The position numbers were made by a program, and so were the translations under genes. The notes beneath the pieces are model-generated. The model saw nothing but the letters and a program-made list of their open reading frames with translations, was not told where the DNA came from and did no database searches. From an uncultured Cryomorphaceae bacterium (GTDB lineage: Bacteria > Bacteroidota > Bacteroidia > Flavobacteriales > Schleiferiaceae): a stretch of 64,000 nucleotides of DNA. Where the stretch lies: NCBI GenBank assembly GCA_937129395.1, contig CAKZNE010000134.1, positions 18,196 through 82,195 on the forward strand, written 5' to 3'. Below, one piece after another: positions 59,740 to 64,000 of this stretch (positions are counted from its first letter, which is position 1; the number at the start of each line of letters is the position of its first letter).

Positions 59740-59747
59740 TACTTTTG
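59740..59747 (+). promoter_or_regulatory. -7 box TACTTTTG (DEAD-box helicase)
   Basis: Exact match 22 nt upstream of GTG 59769. Confidence 0.45.
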
Positions 59748-59768
59748 CCGCAACAAAAAAGCAGAATA

Positions 59769-60887
59769 GTGAGCACTTTTAAGGAATTGGGGATTAGTTC
59801 TAAATTAATCAAAGGTTTGAAGGACCTCAACATTATTGAGCCAACAGAAATTCAAGAAGAGGTAATTCCTCTTTTATTGGAAGGCCCGATAGATTTAGTT
59901 GGACAAGCCCAAACTGGTACAGGAAAAACTGCAGCATATGGCCTACCCCTCTTGCATAGAATAAACCCAAAACTTCCGGTGGTACAAGGATTAATTCTAT
60001 GTCCTACTCGCGAATTAGGTCAGCAAGTAGCAAAGCAATTGTTCCGATTTACCAAATACACCGATAAAATTTTTACCGAAGCGGTTTATGGTGGTGCGCC
60101 TATTGACAAACAAATTTCTGCTTTAAGAAGACCTACTCACATTATTGTAGCTACTCCCGGTAGACTATTGGATCTTTTGGAAAGAAAAGCGGTGGACCTC
60201 AGCGAAGTGAAAACTGTAATATTGGATGAGGCCGACGAAATGTTGACCATGGGTTTTAAAAAGGATTTAGATCAAATTTTAAAAACACTTTCTACAGCTC
60301 AGTGTAAATGGCTTTTTTCTGCAACCATGCCTCATGGAATTCGTGAAATTGTAAACCAACATTTACGAGAAAATGCGCATCGCATTGAGGTTGCTGGTCA
60401 TAATACCCTTAATAAAAACATACAGCATCAGTATCTTTTATGTGATGAGTCTGAAAAATTATACTGGCTACAAAAGCTCATAAAATCCGATCCTGAAAAA
60501 AGGGGAATCGTTTTCTGTAAAACAAAAGCTGCCACACAAAAGCTAGCTAAACAATTGGTAGCAAAAAACATTTCGGCAGATGCCATTCACGGTGACCTTT
60601 TACAAAAGGAAAGGGATAAAGTAATGCGTGCTTTTAAAAATGAAAGTCTGCAAATACTAGTAGCTACAGACCTAGCCGCCAGGGGTTTGGATGTAGAAGC
60701 ACTAGCTTATGTAGTTCATTACCAATTACCGGATCAAGACGAGTATTTCACACATAGAAGTGGAAGAACGGCAAGGGCAGGGAAAGAAGGAATTTCTCTT
60801 TGTTTGCTAAGCTCTTCAGAAATGAAGCAGATTAAACATTTTGAAAAAATATTTGGAATTTTCTTTTTGCAGGTTACTTCTGTTTAG
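59769..60887 (+). CDS. DEAD-box ATP-dependent RNA helicase
   Basis: Q-motif FKELGI..PTEIQ, AQTGTGKT, PTRELG, DEAD (LDEADEM), SAT, HRSGRTARAG. GTG 59769 preferred because the track TTG 59745 lies inside a TACTTTTG -7 box. Confidence 0.85.
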   Translation: MSTFKELGISSKLIKGLKDLNIIEPTEIQEEVIPLLLEGPIDLVGQAQTGTGKTAAYGLPLLHRINPKLPVVQGLILCPTRELGQQVAKQLFRFTKYTDKIFTEAVYGGAPIDKQISALRRPTHIIVATPGRLLDLLERKAVDLSEVKTVILDEADEMLTMGFKKDLDQILKTLSTAQCKWLFSATMPHGIREIVNQHLRENAHRIEVAGHNTLNKNIQHQYLLCDESEKLYWLQKLIKSDPEKRGIVFCKTKAATQKLAKQLVAKNISADAIHGDLLQKERDKVMRAFKNESLQILVATDLAARGLDVEALAYVVHYQLPDQDEYFTHRSGRTARAGKEGISLCLLSSSEMKQIKHFEKIFGIFFLQVTSV

Positions 60888-60924: not shown

Positions 60925-61416
60925 CTACACTAAGCTCAATCCGCAATCAGGACAATCATCATCAGTCACAATTAAATCATAGTTACAAGCTGGGCACTTG
61001 AAGGTTTCTTGATTTCCAATTTCCAATTGCGATCGAGGTGGTTTTTTCGTTGGAGATCTTTTGAAGCTTAATTTTGGGTTTAGAAGGAATGTAGTTTCCT
61101 CTTTTATCCATATTGTTTCATTTTCTTTTGTTTCCAGTATGTAATGTTTTTCATCCTCTATTGGTATTCTTATACCGCCAACTTTTAAAGTTGCAAGGCT
61201 AAATTTAATTAATGGCGGTTTTTTAAATGGAGAATCTTGCCAGTCAGAATTATTGGGTTTTCTTTTGTTTTTAAAAGTTAGGTTTTGCTTTTCAAGGTAA
61301 TCTTCTATTTCATTGGAAAAGGGTTTTGTTAGTATTTGATATATTAAGCGAAGTACCAACCACAGTAGGATCACAAATGCAATCCTCAAGCCTATTAATA
61401 TGAATTCGTTGTACAT
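60925..61416 (-). CDS. Orphan membrane-anchored protein with C-terminal zinc ribbon
   Basis: N-terminal TM ILIGLRIAFVILLWLVL; C-terminal CPACNY..CPDCG. Lies 11 nt downstream of the preceding ORF. Confidence 0.45.
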   Translation of the reverse strand: MYNEFILIGLRIAFVILLWLVLRLIYQILTKPFSNEIEDYLEKQNLTFKNKRKPNNSDWQDSPFKKPPLIKFSLATLKVGGIRIPIEDEKHYILETKENETIWIKEETTFLLNPKLSFKRSPTKKPPRSQLEIGNQETFKCPACNYDLIVTDDDCPDCGLSLV

Positions 61417-61427
61417 TTATTTTTCCA

Positions 61428-62138
61428 TTAATTAAAATAATTTTGCTCTATCATTTGTAAAACTATTGATACTTTTTCTGCATAGGCTTTGTCAAATAAG
61501 TCCGCTTTAAAAAACTCTTTTTCAAGGAGTTCTAAAAGGCCTTTACGATTTATGAATTCGAATATTTCCTTTTCGAAAACCTTTCCCTTGAGGTTCAAGC
61601 CCTTGTTTATTAGATCCGTACCATTAAGGTAATAGAAATGCACAAAATTCTTAATGCTGTTATCGTCTTTCGATAAATCCCAAGCATTCAACAATTCAAT
61701 AGGCTGAAAAAAGAAGGAGTAATATTCCAGGTCATCAATACCAATTTCAGAATTGGCACTATTTACAAAACTCAACCAATCTGCAAAAAAGAAATCCCGA
61801 AGCGCTTTTACTTCAATTTCATCCCAAGATTGCCATTTTGCATATTCGAATTTTGCTGTGATTTCAAAAAGGCCTATCATACCCTTTCCGTTTTTTTGGT
61901 TGTGAACTTCAAGAATTCTTGCTAGGAAATGTTTATAGTGTTCAATTTCTCCCCATGTATAAAGTGCGCTTCCATGGTAGGAAACAAAATCATCTTCTTC
62001 CAATTCTCGGAGCTTTTTCGAAGCCAACTTCCTAACATTCTCCTCGTCAATACAACCACAATCACAATGGTGCATATCCGAAGTGGTGTATTTTGAAAAT
62101 ACCGAGTATAGATTTTCTATTGCTTCTTCAATTTTCAT
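61428..62138 (-). CDS. Orphan cytoplasmic protein with N-terminal HHCDCGC cysteine cluster
   Basis: 236 aa, helical, no family recognised. Clean ORF with Bacteroidetes-like codon usage. Confidence 0.45.
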   Translation of the reverse strand: MKIEEAIENLYSVFSKYTTSDMHHCDCGCIDEENVRKLASKKLRELEEDDFVSYHGSALYTWGEIEHYKHFLARILEVHNQKNGKGMIGLFEITAKFEYAKWQSWDEIEVKALRDFFFADWLSFVNSANSEIGIDDLEYYSFFFQPIELLNAWDLSKDDNSIKNFVHFYYLNGTDLINKGLNLKGKVFEKEIFEFINRKGLLELLEKEFFKADLFDKAYAEKVSIVLQMIEQNYFN

Positions 62139-62213
62139 AAAATGCCAAATTAAAACTGGATTGGAATTTTCTAAGGGGCTGTTTTAGGAACATACGATTT
62201 AGTCAACACCAAA

Positions 62214-62729
62214 CTACTTTTCAGTTAACTCAAACCTGTTTACTACTTGCTTAAAATTGATCCATCCAGGAGTTGTTTCATATGTTCGGACTAATTCAAA
62301 ACCGAGTTTTTCCAATACTCTGTTGGGTGCCTTATTTTCAGAATAGGGTTCGCAAACTAATTTTTTCAGACCTAGGTTTTTGAAGAAATAGGGGATTGAT
62401 AATTTCAGAAATTCATACCCAAGTCCAGCTTTCCGATGGTCATTCTTCCATAAGTGCAAATGCATTTTAGCAGATTCTTTAAATTCAATGTTGTTTACAT
62501 TAGTATGCCCGATTGCTTCGTCATCTAACAACCATATTATATAATAAAATTCCTTTTTAGAATAGGGTTTTTGAAATTCCAAATTCAGTTTCTCCAACCA
62601 TTCCTTTTTTTGGGGCAATTTGCTTTTATCAGCTCCCATTTCCTTTAAAAATTCCTCATCAGAATTTACAAAATAGTCGACTATCTTTTCAATATCGGAA
62701 GCTTGTAATTCTCTTGTGCTTAATTTCAT
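62214..62729 (-). CDS. GNAT-family N-acetyltransferase (RimJ/RimL-like)
   Basis: AcCoA motif HRKAGLGYEF (RxxGxG); ENKAPNRVLEKLGFELV tail typical of Acetyltransf_3-like GNATs. Start is 4 nt after the RloB stop. Confidence 0.7.
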   Translation of the reverse strand: MKLSTRELQASDIEKIVDYFVNSDEEFLKEMGADKSKLPQKKEWLEKLNLEFQKPYSKKEFYYIIWLLDDEAIGHTNVNNIEFKESAKMHLHLWKNDHRKAGLGYEFLKLSIPYFFKNLGLKKLVCEPYSENKAPNRVLEKLGFELVRTYETTPGWINFKQVVNRFELTEK

Positions 62730-62733
62730 TTTT

Positions 62734-63288
62734 CTAATTCGTTTTCAAACTATTTAGCGTTTCAAGGAGCCTATAAATTGTTGTACTCGGGTTACTGTGT
62801 TTTTTTAGTTTTCTCGCTCTTTCAATTGCCGCATTGGATTTTTCGTTAAGCCTTGCTTTTAACTGGGTATCAATAATTCCTTTTTTGTAAGTTCGATTCC
62901 GATTGGTCATTTCACGACAGCAATTGCTACTATTGGTCGAGGAGGTTTGGCTTTTGTAATGCAATAAAAACCACAACTCTATGCATGGATTGGAAACTAG
63001 AAGAATTGAATTTTCAATACAAGAAATCTTTTCTAGCATTTCAGGCACATCTAAATCATACATTAAAAAGGTAATATCTTTTTCGTGAGTCGGTTTATCT
63101 TGCTTATAGTTTGCAATATATTCGGCAGATATGTTGTTTCGTCCAATCTTAGCATGAATGTGAATAGAAGGCAATCTATATAAGGATTTCAGATGATTCA
63201 CATAGGATTCCTCCGTCTCTCCTTCACAAAAAACGAATAAGGTTGGATTGATTTTTTTCCCTTTTGGTATCTTTCTTCCCCCGGCCAT
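62734..63288 (-). CDS. RloB-like (Toprim-related) protein
   Basis: TLFVFCEGETEESY, MYDLDV (DxD) and SNPCIELWFLLHY are the hallmark RloB (PF13707-type) motifs as I recall them. Confidence 0.75.
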   Translation of the reverse strand: MAGGRKIPKGKKINPTLFVFCEGETEESYVNHLKSLYRLPSIHIHAKIGRNNISAEYIANYKQDKPTHEKDITFLMYDLDVPEMLEKISCIENSILLVSNPCIELWFLLHYKSQTSSTNSSNCCREMTNRNRTYKKGIIDTQLKARLNEKSNAAIERARKLKKHSNPSTTIYRLLETLNSLKTN

Positions 63289-63290
63289 TT

Positions 63291-64000
63291 TTACTCCTTG
63301 ATGATTGACAGTAACTTTTCACGTGAATTATCAATAATTGGCACAGAGTCAAATCGTCCTTGTAAATAGGCTTTTTCAAGATTCATTGTTTCTCTGAAAT
63401 CACTGTAGTCGTAAAGAGAATAAAGATCAGAACTCCCTTCCTCCTTTTTATTCACAAACCAAATTTGATCTTTTCTGAACCTGCCTAAATCTAAAAGATT
63501 GGTGTTATGGGTAGTGAAAATAAGCTGAGACTTCTCACTCGCGTGGAAAATGTCGATCAAATACTCTACAATTTTGGGGTGGAGGCTATCCTCTATTTCA
63601 TCAATTAACAATAGCTTATCATTTCTTACAACATCCAAAATTGTAAGCATCATAAAAAACAACTTCTTGGTCCCTCCTGACTCTTCTGTAAGGAAATCAA
63701 AGGCGACTTTTGGAGAGTATTTGTGAAAGGTTTTTATCTCCATGCTCTCGAAAATATCGTCTTCAAAAAAAGCCTCCTCAGTATCTAAATTTGCTCGCAA
63801 TTTTTTTCCTTTTTCTTTTTTAAGCGTGTATTTAAAATCTATAATATCACTATCCGCTAATTGCAAAGCCTTTAAAAGTTGTTTTTTATAGGATTTAACT
63901 AATGGTTCAATATTTCGAATCCCATAATTCGAATGCCTTAGGATAAAGGATCCGTGAAAGTAATTGTAAATGGTTTTTGGAATTTCCCTATCCATTTGAC
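63291..64000 (-). CDS. AAA_21/ABC-like ATPase (AbiL-i/RloA-like); 5' end beyond the window
   Basis: ESGGTKKLF signature-like, Walker B LLLIDEIEDSLHP, H-loop LIFTTHN. Frame is still open at 64000, so Walker A is off-window. Stop lies 2 nt before the RloB start. Confidence 0.7.
   Translation of the reverse strand, partial: QMDREIPKTIYNYFHGSFILRHSNYGIRNIEPLVKSYKKQLLKALQLADSDIIDFKYTLKKEKGKKLRANLDTEEAFFEDDIFESMEIKTFHKYSPKVAFDFLTEESGGTKKLFFMMLTILDVVRNDKLLLIDEIEDSLHPKIVEYLIDIFHASEKSQLIFTTHNTNLLDLGRFRKDQIWFVNKKEEGSSDLYSLYDYSDFRETMNLEKAYLQGRFDSVPIIDNSREKLLSIIKE

Follow-up and report, generated by a model that had tools for sequence, protein, structure and literature searches.

The window, a stretch of 64 kb of DNA, ends on its right in five minus-strand ORFs (Table 1). 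Direct reading of the sequence confirmed all five, together with the spacings and every motif quoted in a sequence-only reading of the same DNA, which had drawn attention to their tight packing. The abiLi stop codon, TAA, is separated by 'aa' from the ATG of the RloB gene, abiLii, a junction of 2 nt, and the abiLii TAG is separated by 'aaaa' from the ATG of a gene for a GNAT acetyltransferase, a junction of 4 nt. Gaps of 75 nt and 11 nt lie between the GNAT gene and ORF236 and between ORF236 and ORF163, respectively. ORF163 and a DEAD-box helicase gene converge, 37 nt apart, so that the islet does adjoin the helicase as that reading had it. The motifs located in the five ORFs were LLLIDEIEDSLHP, LIFTTHN, CEGETE, YDLD, NPCIELWFLLHY, RKAGLG, HHCDCGC and CPAC..CPDC.

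Table 1. Genes at the right edge of the window, in window coordinates.
Feature	Coordinates	Strand	Description
abiLi (ATPase, 3' part)	63291..>64000	-	AAA_21; cut by window edge
abiLii (RloB)	62734-63288	-	184 aa; RloB family
GNAT	62214-62729	-	171 aa; Acetyltransf_3, RimJ/RimL-like; neighbour, outside the system
ORF236	61428-62138	-	236 aa; all-alpha uncharacterised family; neighbour, outside the system
ORF163	60925-61416	-	163 aa; TM helix and zinc ribbon; neighbour, outside the system
DEAD-box helicase	59745-60887	+	converges with ORF163

The abiLi reading frame stays open as far as the window end and has no stop codon ahead of its first ATG; within the window are the C-terminal 236 codons of a 419-aa protein. 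Because the frame runs off the edge and the AAA_21 match of the fragment enters the 304-position profile only at position 151, Walker A and the rest of the N-terminal half were placed outside the window. A metagenome contig 99.9% identical to the locus, L001, was used to extend the sequence beyond the window end, and the full-length protein was recovered from it (L001 8739-9998), bearing out the earlier view that the window end cuts the system. The fragment contains an SGG signature, Walker B (LLLIDEIE) and the H-loop TTHN; the full-length protein also has Walker A (GSNASGKS). With the extension, the Pfam AAA_21 match improved from 1.5e-17 to 1.9e-32, over profile positions 2-304, and the PADLOC AbiLi match from 9.9e-50 to 4.2e-83. 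The second-best PADLOC model for the full-length protein was AriA, at 3.2e-32, far below the AbiLi score. A PDB sequence search with full-length abiLi gave no match.

The abiLii product matched Pfam RloB at 2.3e-25 and PADLOC AbiLii, the sole PADLOC model that it matched, at 2.5e-23, the latter match being partial (positions 25-89 of 170). RloB homologues are numerous, 1248 at E<=0.001; the best 120 of these are 53-98% identical to the protein, and those with a named source are all from Bacteroidota. Seven residues were invariant in 27 RloB homologues, namely E22, D78, D80, N100, P101, E104 and W106. A PDB sequence search with the RloB profile gave no match. The top PDB fold match of the RloB model (pLDDT 72) was the Toprim C-terminal region of Burkholderia pseudomallei OLD (6nk8_A), with E 5e-3, probability 0.91 and a weak TM score of 0.34. 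RloB is predicted to be a Toprim-like nuclease effector mainly from published HHpred statements, the relation of RloB to Toprim being given in PMC10440598, with the weak fold match beside them.

AbiL, in the PADLOC and DefenseFinder sense, is defined by an AAA_21 ATPase with intact Walker A and Walker B and by an RloB-family gene directly 3' of it on the same strand. The full-length abiLi protein from L001 has both Walker motifs, and abiLii follows at the 2-nt junction. The two genes are near-obligate partners: of 79 related metagenome loci, 77 have an ATPase gene directly 5' of the RloB gene, the junctions ranging from +10 to -44 nt. The proposed identity of the pair, a split ATPase/Toprim-like module of AbiL type, therefore held, on domain identities, on conserved residues of catalytic type and on pairing, and so did its proposed relation to OLD- and PARIS-type systems, which agrees with the placing of AbiL among ABC-ATPase plus Toprim defence systems in PMC11464382 and PMC10440598. 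AbiL of Lactococcus lactis plasmid pND861 is likewise a pair of neighbouring genes on one strand, that for an AAA_21 ABC-type ATPase first and that for a small RloB-family protein second. The present genes are not on a plasmid but on a chromosome, or metagenome contig, of Bacteroidota, and abortive-infection resistance to phage that depends on both genes is known from the lactococcal founder (Deng 1999, cited in PMC10440598). PARIS (AriA/AriB, class 4 OLD-like) shares the ABC ATPase and, if the prediction for RloB holds, a separate Toprim-type nuclease, and presumably the same sensor/effector logic; its effector, however, is DUF4435/AriB of ~300 aa, whereas that of the present pair is RloB (PF13707) of 184 aa. 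PARIS is defined by a DUF4435 AriB partnered with AriA, and the RloB protein had no PADLOC match to AriB. OLD (P2 Old, class 1) and Gabija GajA (class 2) would have ATPase plus Toprim chemistry in common with the pair, but there the two are fused in one polypeptide, while here they are split and no UvrD/GajB partner accompanies them.

The RloA/RloB proteins of Campylobacter hsd loci belong to the same Pfam families, an AAA_21-type ATPase and PF13707 RloB, and the sequence-only reading had left room for an hsd locus beyond the window end. The 8.7 kb of L001 that lie 5' of the ATPase gene contain an AlkB-like gene, lipoprotein-like and Por_Secre_tail genes, genes of no known function and a HigBA-like pair. 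No hsdM, hsdS, hsdR or N6-methylase gene was found there or, within the window, on the 3' side of the pair, so that, unlike Campylobacter RloA/RloB, the present pair has no flanking hsd genes, and the suspected upstream locus is absent over that distance. Related loci do occasionally have such company: an HsdR-like ResIII/HSDR_N gene follows RloB in 5 of 65, and an HsdR/EcoEI_R_C gene lies 5' of the ATPase in 1 of 35. The majority, however, stand alone, and on the 3' side of the present pair 3.3 kb of window sequence reaches the DEAD-box helicase. That the pair sits in, or serves, a type I restriction-modification locus as in Campylobacter is thus extremely unlikely.

The GNAT protein had been proposed to form a three-gene system with AbiLi and AbiLii, or a five-gene islet with ORF236 and ORF163 as well, in which the GNAT would be a modifier of AbiL or an effector that acetylates aminoacyl-tRNA in the manner of TacT and AtaT. 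The gene spacing has something to offer this proposal. The 4-nt junction leaves the GNAT gene no room for a promoter of its own outside abiLii, and it is therefore probably co-transcribed with AbiL; no terminator-like site was found between the two, and GNAT, ORF236 and ORF163 are probably all read through from the AbiL promoter. Signal searches were uninformative on operon structure: sigma-70-like promoter sites were rarer than in shuffled sequence, the Bacteroidetes -7 motif TAnnTTTG was absent from L001 7900-12400, where ~1.9 occurrences were expected, and the sole terminator-like site found in the terminator scan sits on the wrong strand.

Close spacing is common in this DNA. Among the 31 same-strand junctions of the window, tallied from crude gene calls, 8 (26%) are of <=4 nt and 13 are of <=12 nt, and the tight packing of the five ORFs is not above chance for this window. 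GNAT orthologues that follow unrelated genes also commonly have junctions of <=4 nt. The islet had also looked more AT-rich than the core genes. Its genes do have a GC content of 0.33-0.35, where the mean for all genes of the window is 0.369 (sd 0.023), but the deviation (z -0.7 to -1.6) falls in the window's own range and GC3 shows no drop relative to the window; compositional foreignness was discarded as evidence because the deviation lies inside this normal spread.

To ask if the GNAT gene is linked to AbiL, the neighbourhoods of both partners were tabulated. A GNAT gene was found directly 3' of RloB in none of the 65 related RloB loci having a downstream gene, for a rule-of-three upper 95% bound of roughly 5%. 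Conversely, in 85 loci with GNAT orthologues (44-79% identity), profile searches of six-frame translations at E<=1 found neither RloB nor this ATPase within 10 kb (0/85; upper bound roughly 4%). The closest RloB relative (78%, L172) has no GNAT gene; next after its RloB gene comes a gene for an AMP-binding enzyme in convergent orientation. For the GNAT, the relative of highest identity (79%, L082) lies in a different context, just downstream of an AbiH gene; that it is again just 3' of an Abi gene is a point in favour of the three- or five-gene proposal. When L001 was compared with the three closest GNAT contexts, the GNAT gene was the sole gene shared. PADLOC was also run on 78 genes 5' of GNAT orthologues; the output was unusable as a defence-island test because it was swamped by generic UvrD/GajB matches to the housekeeping UvrD of Aquimarina.

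The GNAT protein itself is of a different kind from the proposed toxin. Pfam supported the GNAT assignment (Acetyltransf_3, 1.2e-17), as it did AAA_21 and RloB for the other two proteins. The best NCBIfam matches were PseH and RimJ, both below their own cut-offs; PADLOC gave no match; and in a PDB profile search the nearest solved relatives were the RimJ-like 3igr and the aminoglycoside acetyltransferase 6bff, with no TacT or AtaT match at E<=1e-3. With the type II toxins TacT, AtaT and ItaT it has no more in common than the overall GNAT fold and a comparable size. The genes beside it are RloB and ORF236, and neither is an RHH (DUF1778) antitoxin. At E<=0.001 the protein has 295 homologues; the best 120 of these are mostly from Bacteroidota and, two near-identical copies of the gene itself aside, 61-79% identical, the best match in species-representative genomes being 71%. 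The contexts of the orthologues are stable within genera, for example UvrD-GNAT-Sua5 in Aquimarina and a position inside a hem cluster in Kordia. The GNAT gene is, then, a RimJ/RimL-like gene that stands alone, is widespread in marine Bacteroidota and occurs in unrelated chromosomal settings, and a role for it as effector or modifier of AbiL was not supported.

ORF236 and ORF163 had been taken for orphans and for possible further components, and they are neither. ORF236 has 117 homologues; its family is found mostly in Bacteroidota, and a CxCGC motif is invariant in it. The protein had no Pfam, PADLOC or PHROG match. Its AF2 model (pLDDT 92.5) is all-alpha and a fold search against the PDB gave nothing better than E 0.36. 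Neither AbiL nor GNAT was present in the contexts of ORF236 elsewhere. ORF163, which has a TM helix at the N-terminus and a CPxC..CPDCG zinc ribbon at the C-terminus, belongs to a small uncharacterised family; 82 representative relatives reach E<=1e-3, and 41 reach E<=1e-10. Its Pfam matches were weak zinc-ribbon matches below cut-offs, and its profile found no copy in the other loci compared, ORF236 loci included. The two are separate uncharacterised families, independent of AbiL, and co-occur neither with AbiL, nor with GNAT, nor with each other.

Against the likely co-transcription and the AbiH neighbour of L082, then, stand the two empty tallies, the GNAT-free closest RloB relative, the RimJ/RimL-like type of the GNAT and the unlinked ORFs, and a three- or five-gene system is very improbable; the adjacency of GNAT to RloB is probably one of chance. 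We give similarly little credence to a narrower version in which this single lineage captured the GNAT gene into its AbiL operon, where the 4-nt junction would make co-transcription obligatory and the enzyme would now modulate the system, e.g., through acetylation of either AbiL protein or of a target RNA, or to the weaker variant in which Abi genes would repeatedly have landed just 5' of this GNAT family (AbiL here, AbiH in L082). The locus is very probably an ordinary stand-alone two-gene AbiL cassette (AbiLi/AbiLii, of RloA/RloB type) from an uncultured, Flavobacteriaceae-like marine genome, with GNAT, ORF236 and ORF163 as independent adjacent genes.

The flanks of the cassette, an AlkB-like 2OG-Fe(II) oxygenase gene just 5' of abiLi (L001 7975-8487) and GNAT on the other side, may tell how it came to lie there. 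Two Kordia genomes have a gene 76-78% identical to the AlkB-like gene ~2.5 kb 5' of their GNAT orthologue, and there hemE and a second GNAT gene occupy the interval. None of the hem genes of the Kordia cluster was found in the window or L001, the AlkB-like gene and GNAT being all that is shared with Kordia. The sequence comparison is consistent with the AbiL cassette occupying a pre-existing AlkB...GNAT interval. No tRNA gene and no meaningful direct or inverted repeats flank the pair, and L001 has no integrase gene. The boundaries and the direction of the putative event are inferred, because no conspecific genome lacking the cassette was found.

How the AbiL pair would act can be proposed by analogy with its relatives. 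AbiLi, the ABC-type AAA_21 ATPase, would be the infection sensor as well as the regulator and would restrain or activate AbiLii, which would be a small Toprim-like metal-dependent nuclease using the conserved Glu of CEGETE, the DxD of YDLD and the Glu of NPCIELW. Phage infection would free the nuclease to cleave nucleic acid, perhaps tRNA, as with PARIS AriB, or DNA, as with OLD and GajA, and growth of the cell would be arrested before the phage cycle is completed. AbiLii is named as the toxic effector in the literature (PMC11464382; PMC10440598, citing Deng et al. 1999), and the founding AbiL was defined via phage abortive infection (Deng 1999, cited in PMC10440598). A different reading takes the pair as mainly a selfish toxin-antitoxin, or addiction, module, in which the Toprim-like protein would be the toxin and the ATPase its antitoxin, with no real anti-phage role in this host. 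AAA_21 plus RloB/OLD-Toprim pairs do appear in the NetFlax type II toxin-antitoxin network, the ATPase neutralising the nuclease (PMC10440598), and the cassette is found in very varied contexts, at times beside transposases. The definition of the founder, however, and the fact that the relatives of the same architecture, PARIS, Gabija and OLD, are defence systems (PMC11464382) make a mainly selfish module unlikely; moreover, one and the same pair can behave as a toxin-antitoxin module and act in abortive infection.

In sum, the close packing of genes in a compact Bacteroidota genome does not show that they form a functional unit, and the seeming coupling of AbiL to a GNAT vanishes once the neighbourhoods of either partner are tabulated. 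The two-gene cassette is one more chromosomal AbiL in an already populous clade, as the number of RloB homologues given above indicates, and is of little value beyond annotation. For studies of the AbiL mechanism any well-behaved member of the family could serve, this instance having no special advantage.

Five consecutive minus-strand ORFs occupy positions 60925-64000 at the right edge of the window, with the coordinates and strand given by the sequence-only reading, and every motif quoted in that reading was found. Read from the sequence, the ATPase-RloB junction is 2 nt (TAA-aa-ATG) and the RloB-GNAT junction 4 nt (TAG-aaaa-ATG), followed by gaps of 75 nt between GNAT and ORF236 and 11 nt between ORF236 and ORF163. 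Same-strand junctions of 4 nt or less are found at 8 of 31 in the window.

Genes at the right edge of the window
Feature	Position	Strand	Basis
ATPase fragment (AbiLi)	63291 to window end (64000)	minus	ORF and AAA_21 match
RloB (AbiLii)	62734-63288	minus	Pfam RloB and PADLOC AbiLii
GNAT	62214-62729	minus	acetyltransferase ORF
ORF236, 236 aa	61428-62138	minus	family without Pfam, PADLOC or PHROG match
ORF163, 163 aa	60925-61416	minus	TM helix and CPxC..CPDCG ribbon
DEAD-box helicase	59745-60887	plus	convergent with ORF163

Since the ATPase frame stays open as far as base 64000 and matches AAA_21 from profile position 151 of 304 onwards, the N-terminal half lies outside the window. The extension past 64000 proposed in the sequence-only reading came from L001, a 21.1-kb marine-metagenome contig from ENA whose overlap with the window end, 4988 bases, is 99.9% identical and which supplies the whole ATPase plus 8.7 kb further upstream. 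The complete protein has 419 aa, with Walker A GSNASGKS, an SGG signature, Walker B LLLIDEIE and TTHN. An AlkB-like 2OG-Fe(II) oxygenase gene (L001 7975-8487) lies directly upstream of AbiLi; the 8.7 kb also hold lipoprotein-like and Por_Secre_tail genes and several unknowns, while hsd genes, an integrase and tRNAs are absent from them. Some 6 kb upstream of AbiLi lies a HigBA-like pair (L001 2102-2776; Gp49, HigB-like, and HTH_3/HTH_19, HigA-like), among several small genes that lack a family match.

Judged by its sequence, the ATPase-RloB pair is a complete, typical AbiL cassette, since profile matches, invariant residues, a weak fold match, published placement and pairing in related loci all point that way. 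The full-length ATPase matched AbiLi best in PADLOC (4.2e-83; AriA second, 3.2e-32) and covered the entire Pfam AAA_21 profile (1.9e-32), while RloB matched PADLOC AbiLii (2.5e-23) and Pfam RloB (2.3e-25), so that the HMMs bear out the earlier assignment to an AbiL-type module. RloB had 1248 homologues at E<=0.001, the best 120 being 53-98% identical and from Bacteroidota wherever the source was named. Across 27 aligned homologues the invariant residues are F20, C21, E22, G23, Y77, D78, D80, N100, P101, E104 and W106, which appear to match the combination of Glu and DxD that a Toprim-type metal site would be expected to have. When the AlphaFold model of RloB (pLDDT 72) was compared with PDB folds, the best match was 6nk8_A, from the B. 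pseudomallei OLD protein, in its C-terminal Toprim region (E 5e-3, probability 0.91), though the TM of 0.34 is weak; PDB sequence searches with the RloB profile and the full ATPase found nothing. AbiL has been grouped with AAA15/21 ABC-ATPase plus Toprim defence systems (PMC11464382), and RloB has been related to OLD_TOPRIM by HHpred (PMC10440598); where the latter source cites Deng et al. 1999, AbiLii is given as the toxic effector. Pairing was scored in 79 of 80 related metagenome loci (RloB identity 46-74%); in 77 of these the ATPase gene directly precedes RloB, the junctions ranging from +10 to -44 nt. In most of these loci (L087-L166) the cassette of this Bacteroidota AbiL clade stands alone, in surroundings that vary; a minority adjoin other conflict genes, namely HsdR-like ResIII (after RloB in 5 of 65), HEPN_AbiV (L146), AEP-TOTE in two, and IS110/IS200 transposases (L089, L127).

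The sequence-only reading had further proposed a three-gene AbiL-GNAT system. The gene downstream of RloB was available in 65 of the 79 loci, and the profile of this GNAT family matched none of the 65, even at E<=1. Acetyltransferase families were not among the 25 most frequent in Pfam scans of all 65, and ten same-strand downstream ORFs of about 120-230 aa, scanned separately, included no GNAT. The genes after RloB were miscellaneous and included HsdR-like ResIII helicases (5/65), transposases, a HEPN_AbiV protein, AEP-TOTE and metabolic genes. In the closest RloB relative (78%, L172) the next gene is a convergent AMP-binding-enzyme C-terminus, with no GNAT.

The same result was obtained from the GNAT side. 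There were 295 GNAT homologues at E<=0.001; the best 120, two near-identical copies of the gene itself excepted, were 61-79% identical and mostly from Bacteroidota, and the usual source name among them, where given, was 'RimJ/RimL family'. An alignment of 21 sequences had 44 invariant columns. Contexts were taken from 80 loci of species-representative genomes (44-71% identity; Aquimarina, Kordia, Polaribacter, Winogradskyella, Dokdonia, Saprospiraceae and others) and, for the closest homologues, from metagenomes or MAGs (five contexts). By tblastn with the window proteins, ATPase, RloB, ORF236 and ORF163 were absent from all 80 genome loci, and neither an RloB-alignment profile nor ATPase phmmer on six-frame translations gave a match in the 85. 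Neighbours vary between genera and are stable within a genus: in Aquimarina the order is UvrD-GNAT-Sua5/YrdC, and in Kordia (L021 5293-12842, L032 5123-13309) GNAT lies inside a haem-biosynthesis cluster, hemCD fusion, AlkB-like, hemE, second GNAT, GNAT, EI24 (CysZ-like), hemF. GNAT is the sole gene that L001 shares with the three closest contexts. By crude ORF calls, the upstream gap was 12 nt or less at 8 of 78 orthologues. GNAT is a stand-alone gene, often close behind unrelated same-strand genes. Judged by the refuting conditions that the sequence-only reading had itself set, the three-gene system is not supported. The suggested TacT/AtaT-like effector role was not supported either: among solved structures its nearest relatives are 3igr, a RimJ-like enzyme, and 6bff, an aminoglycoside acetyltransferase, rather than TacT or AtaT, NCBIfam gave only sub-threshold PseH and RimJ, and PADLOC had no match.

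The rival view, that GNAT was captured into AbiL in this lineage or that Abi genes recurrently land upstream of the GNAT family, is very improbable. The landing-site variant is suggested by one observation: in L082 3408-5184 (GCA_047518385.1, JAOPTP010003920.1) the closest homologue (79%) follows an AbiH gene (PF14253; PADLOC AbiH 7.7e-12) at a distance of 173 nt. Two of the closest GNAT contexts thus carry an Abi gene just before the GNAT, a different one in each, which may be coincidence or a local hotspot.

In two Kordia genomes, a gene 76-78% identical to the AlkB-like gene directly upstream of AbiLi precedes the GNAT orthologue by about 2.5 kb, the interval being filled by hemE and the second GNAT. 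This observation, from two genera only, is consistent with an older AlkB-like...GNAT neighbourhood in which the AbiL cassette now takes up the interior. No empty site (AlkB-like...GNAT without AbiL) was found, and the AbiL pair has no flanking repeats or tRNA as insertion marks. The islet had also been thought more AT-rich than the core. The five genes are indeed slightly low in GC (0.33-0.35, where the genes of the window average 0.369, sd 0.023; z -0.7 to -1.6), but other window genes are equally low (0.324-0.333) and GC3 is not lowered; composition does not speak for a foreign origin.

ORF236 and ORF163, taken earlier for orphans and possible further components, are real, uncharacterised, patchily distributed genes. 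ORF236 has 117 homologues (39-74% identical; Bacteroidota where named), in which C-x-C-G-C and many aromatic residues are invariant. Pfam, PADLOC and PHROG gave no match, and the highly confident all-alpha AlphaFold model (pLDDT 92.5) found nothing in the PDB better than E 0.36. Three sampled contexts all differed from one another, and AbiL and GNAT were absent from them. One homologue, in Tenacibaculum skagerrakense (L169), belongs to a series of small genes on one strand that includes Barstar, DUF5677 and AbiJ_NTD4, a hint at an immunity or conflict-island role. Common to the 82 representative relatives of ORF163 are a TM helix, a central conserved region RKPN..DW..PF.KPP and the C-terminal CPxC..CPDCG ribbon. 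Its profile found no copy in any other comparison locus; because these include the ORF236 loci, ORF163 is not a partner of ORF236. ORF163 could be assigned to no family and has no recurring partner among the comparison loci. Nothing ties either gene to AbiL, and a five-gene islet is not supported.

The cassette has a complete ABC-type ATPase and an RloB with invariant acidic residues, in near-obligate pairing. On the model of PARIS, OLD and Gabija, and from published statements on AbiL, AbiLi would sense infection and control AbiLii, a putative Toprim-like nuclease whose release would lead to degradation of tRNA or DNA and abort the infection. GNAT is probably co-transcribed with the pair by read-through, yet would be functionally independent of it.
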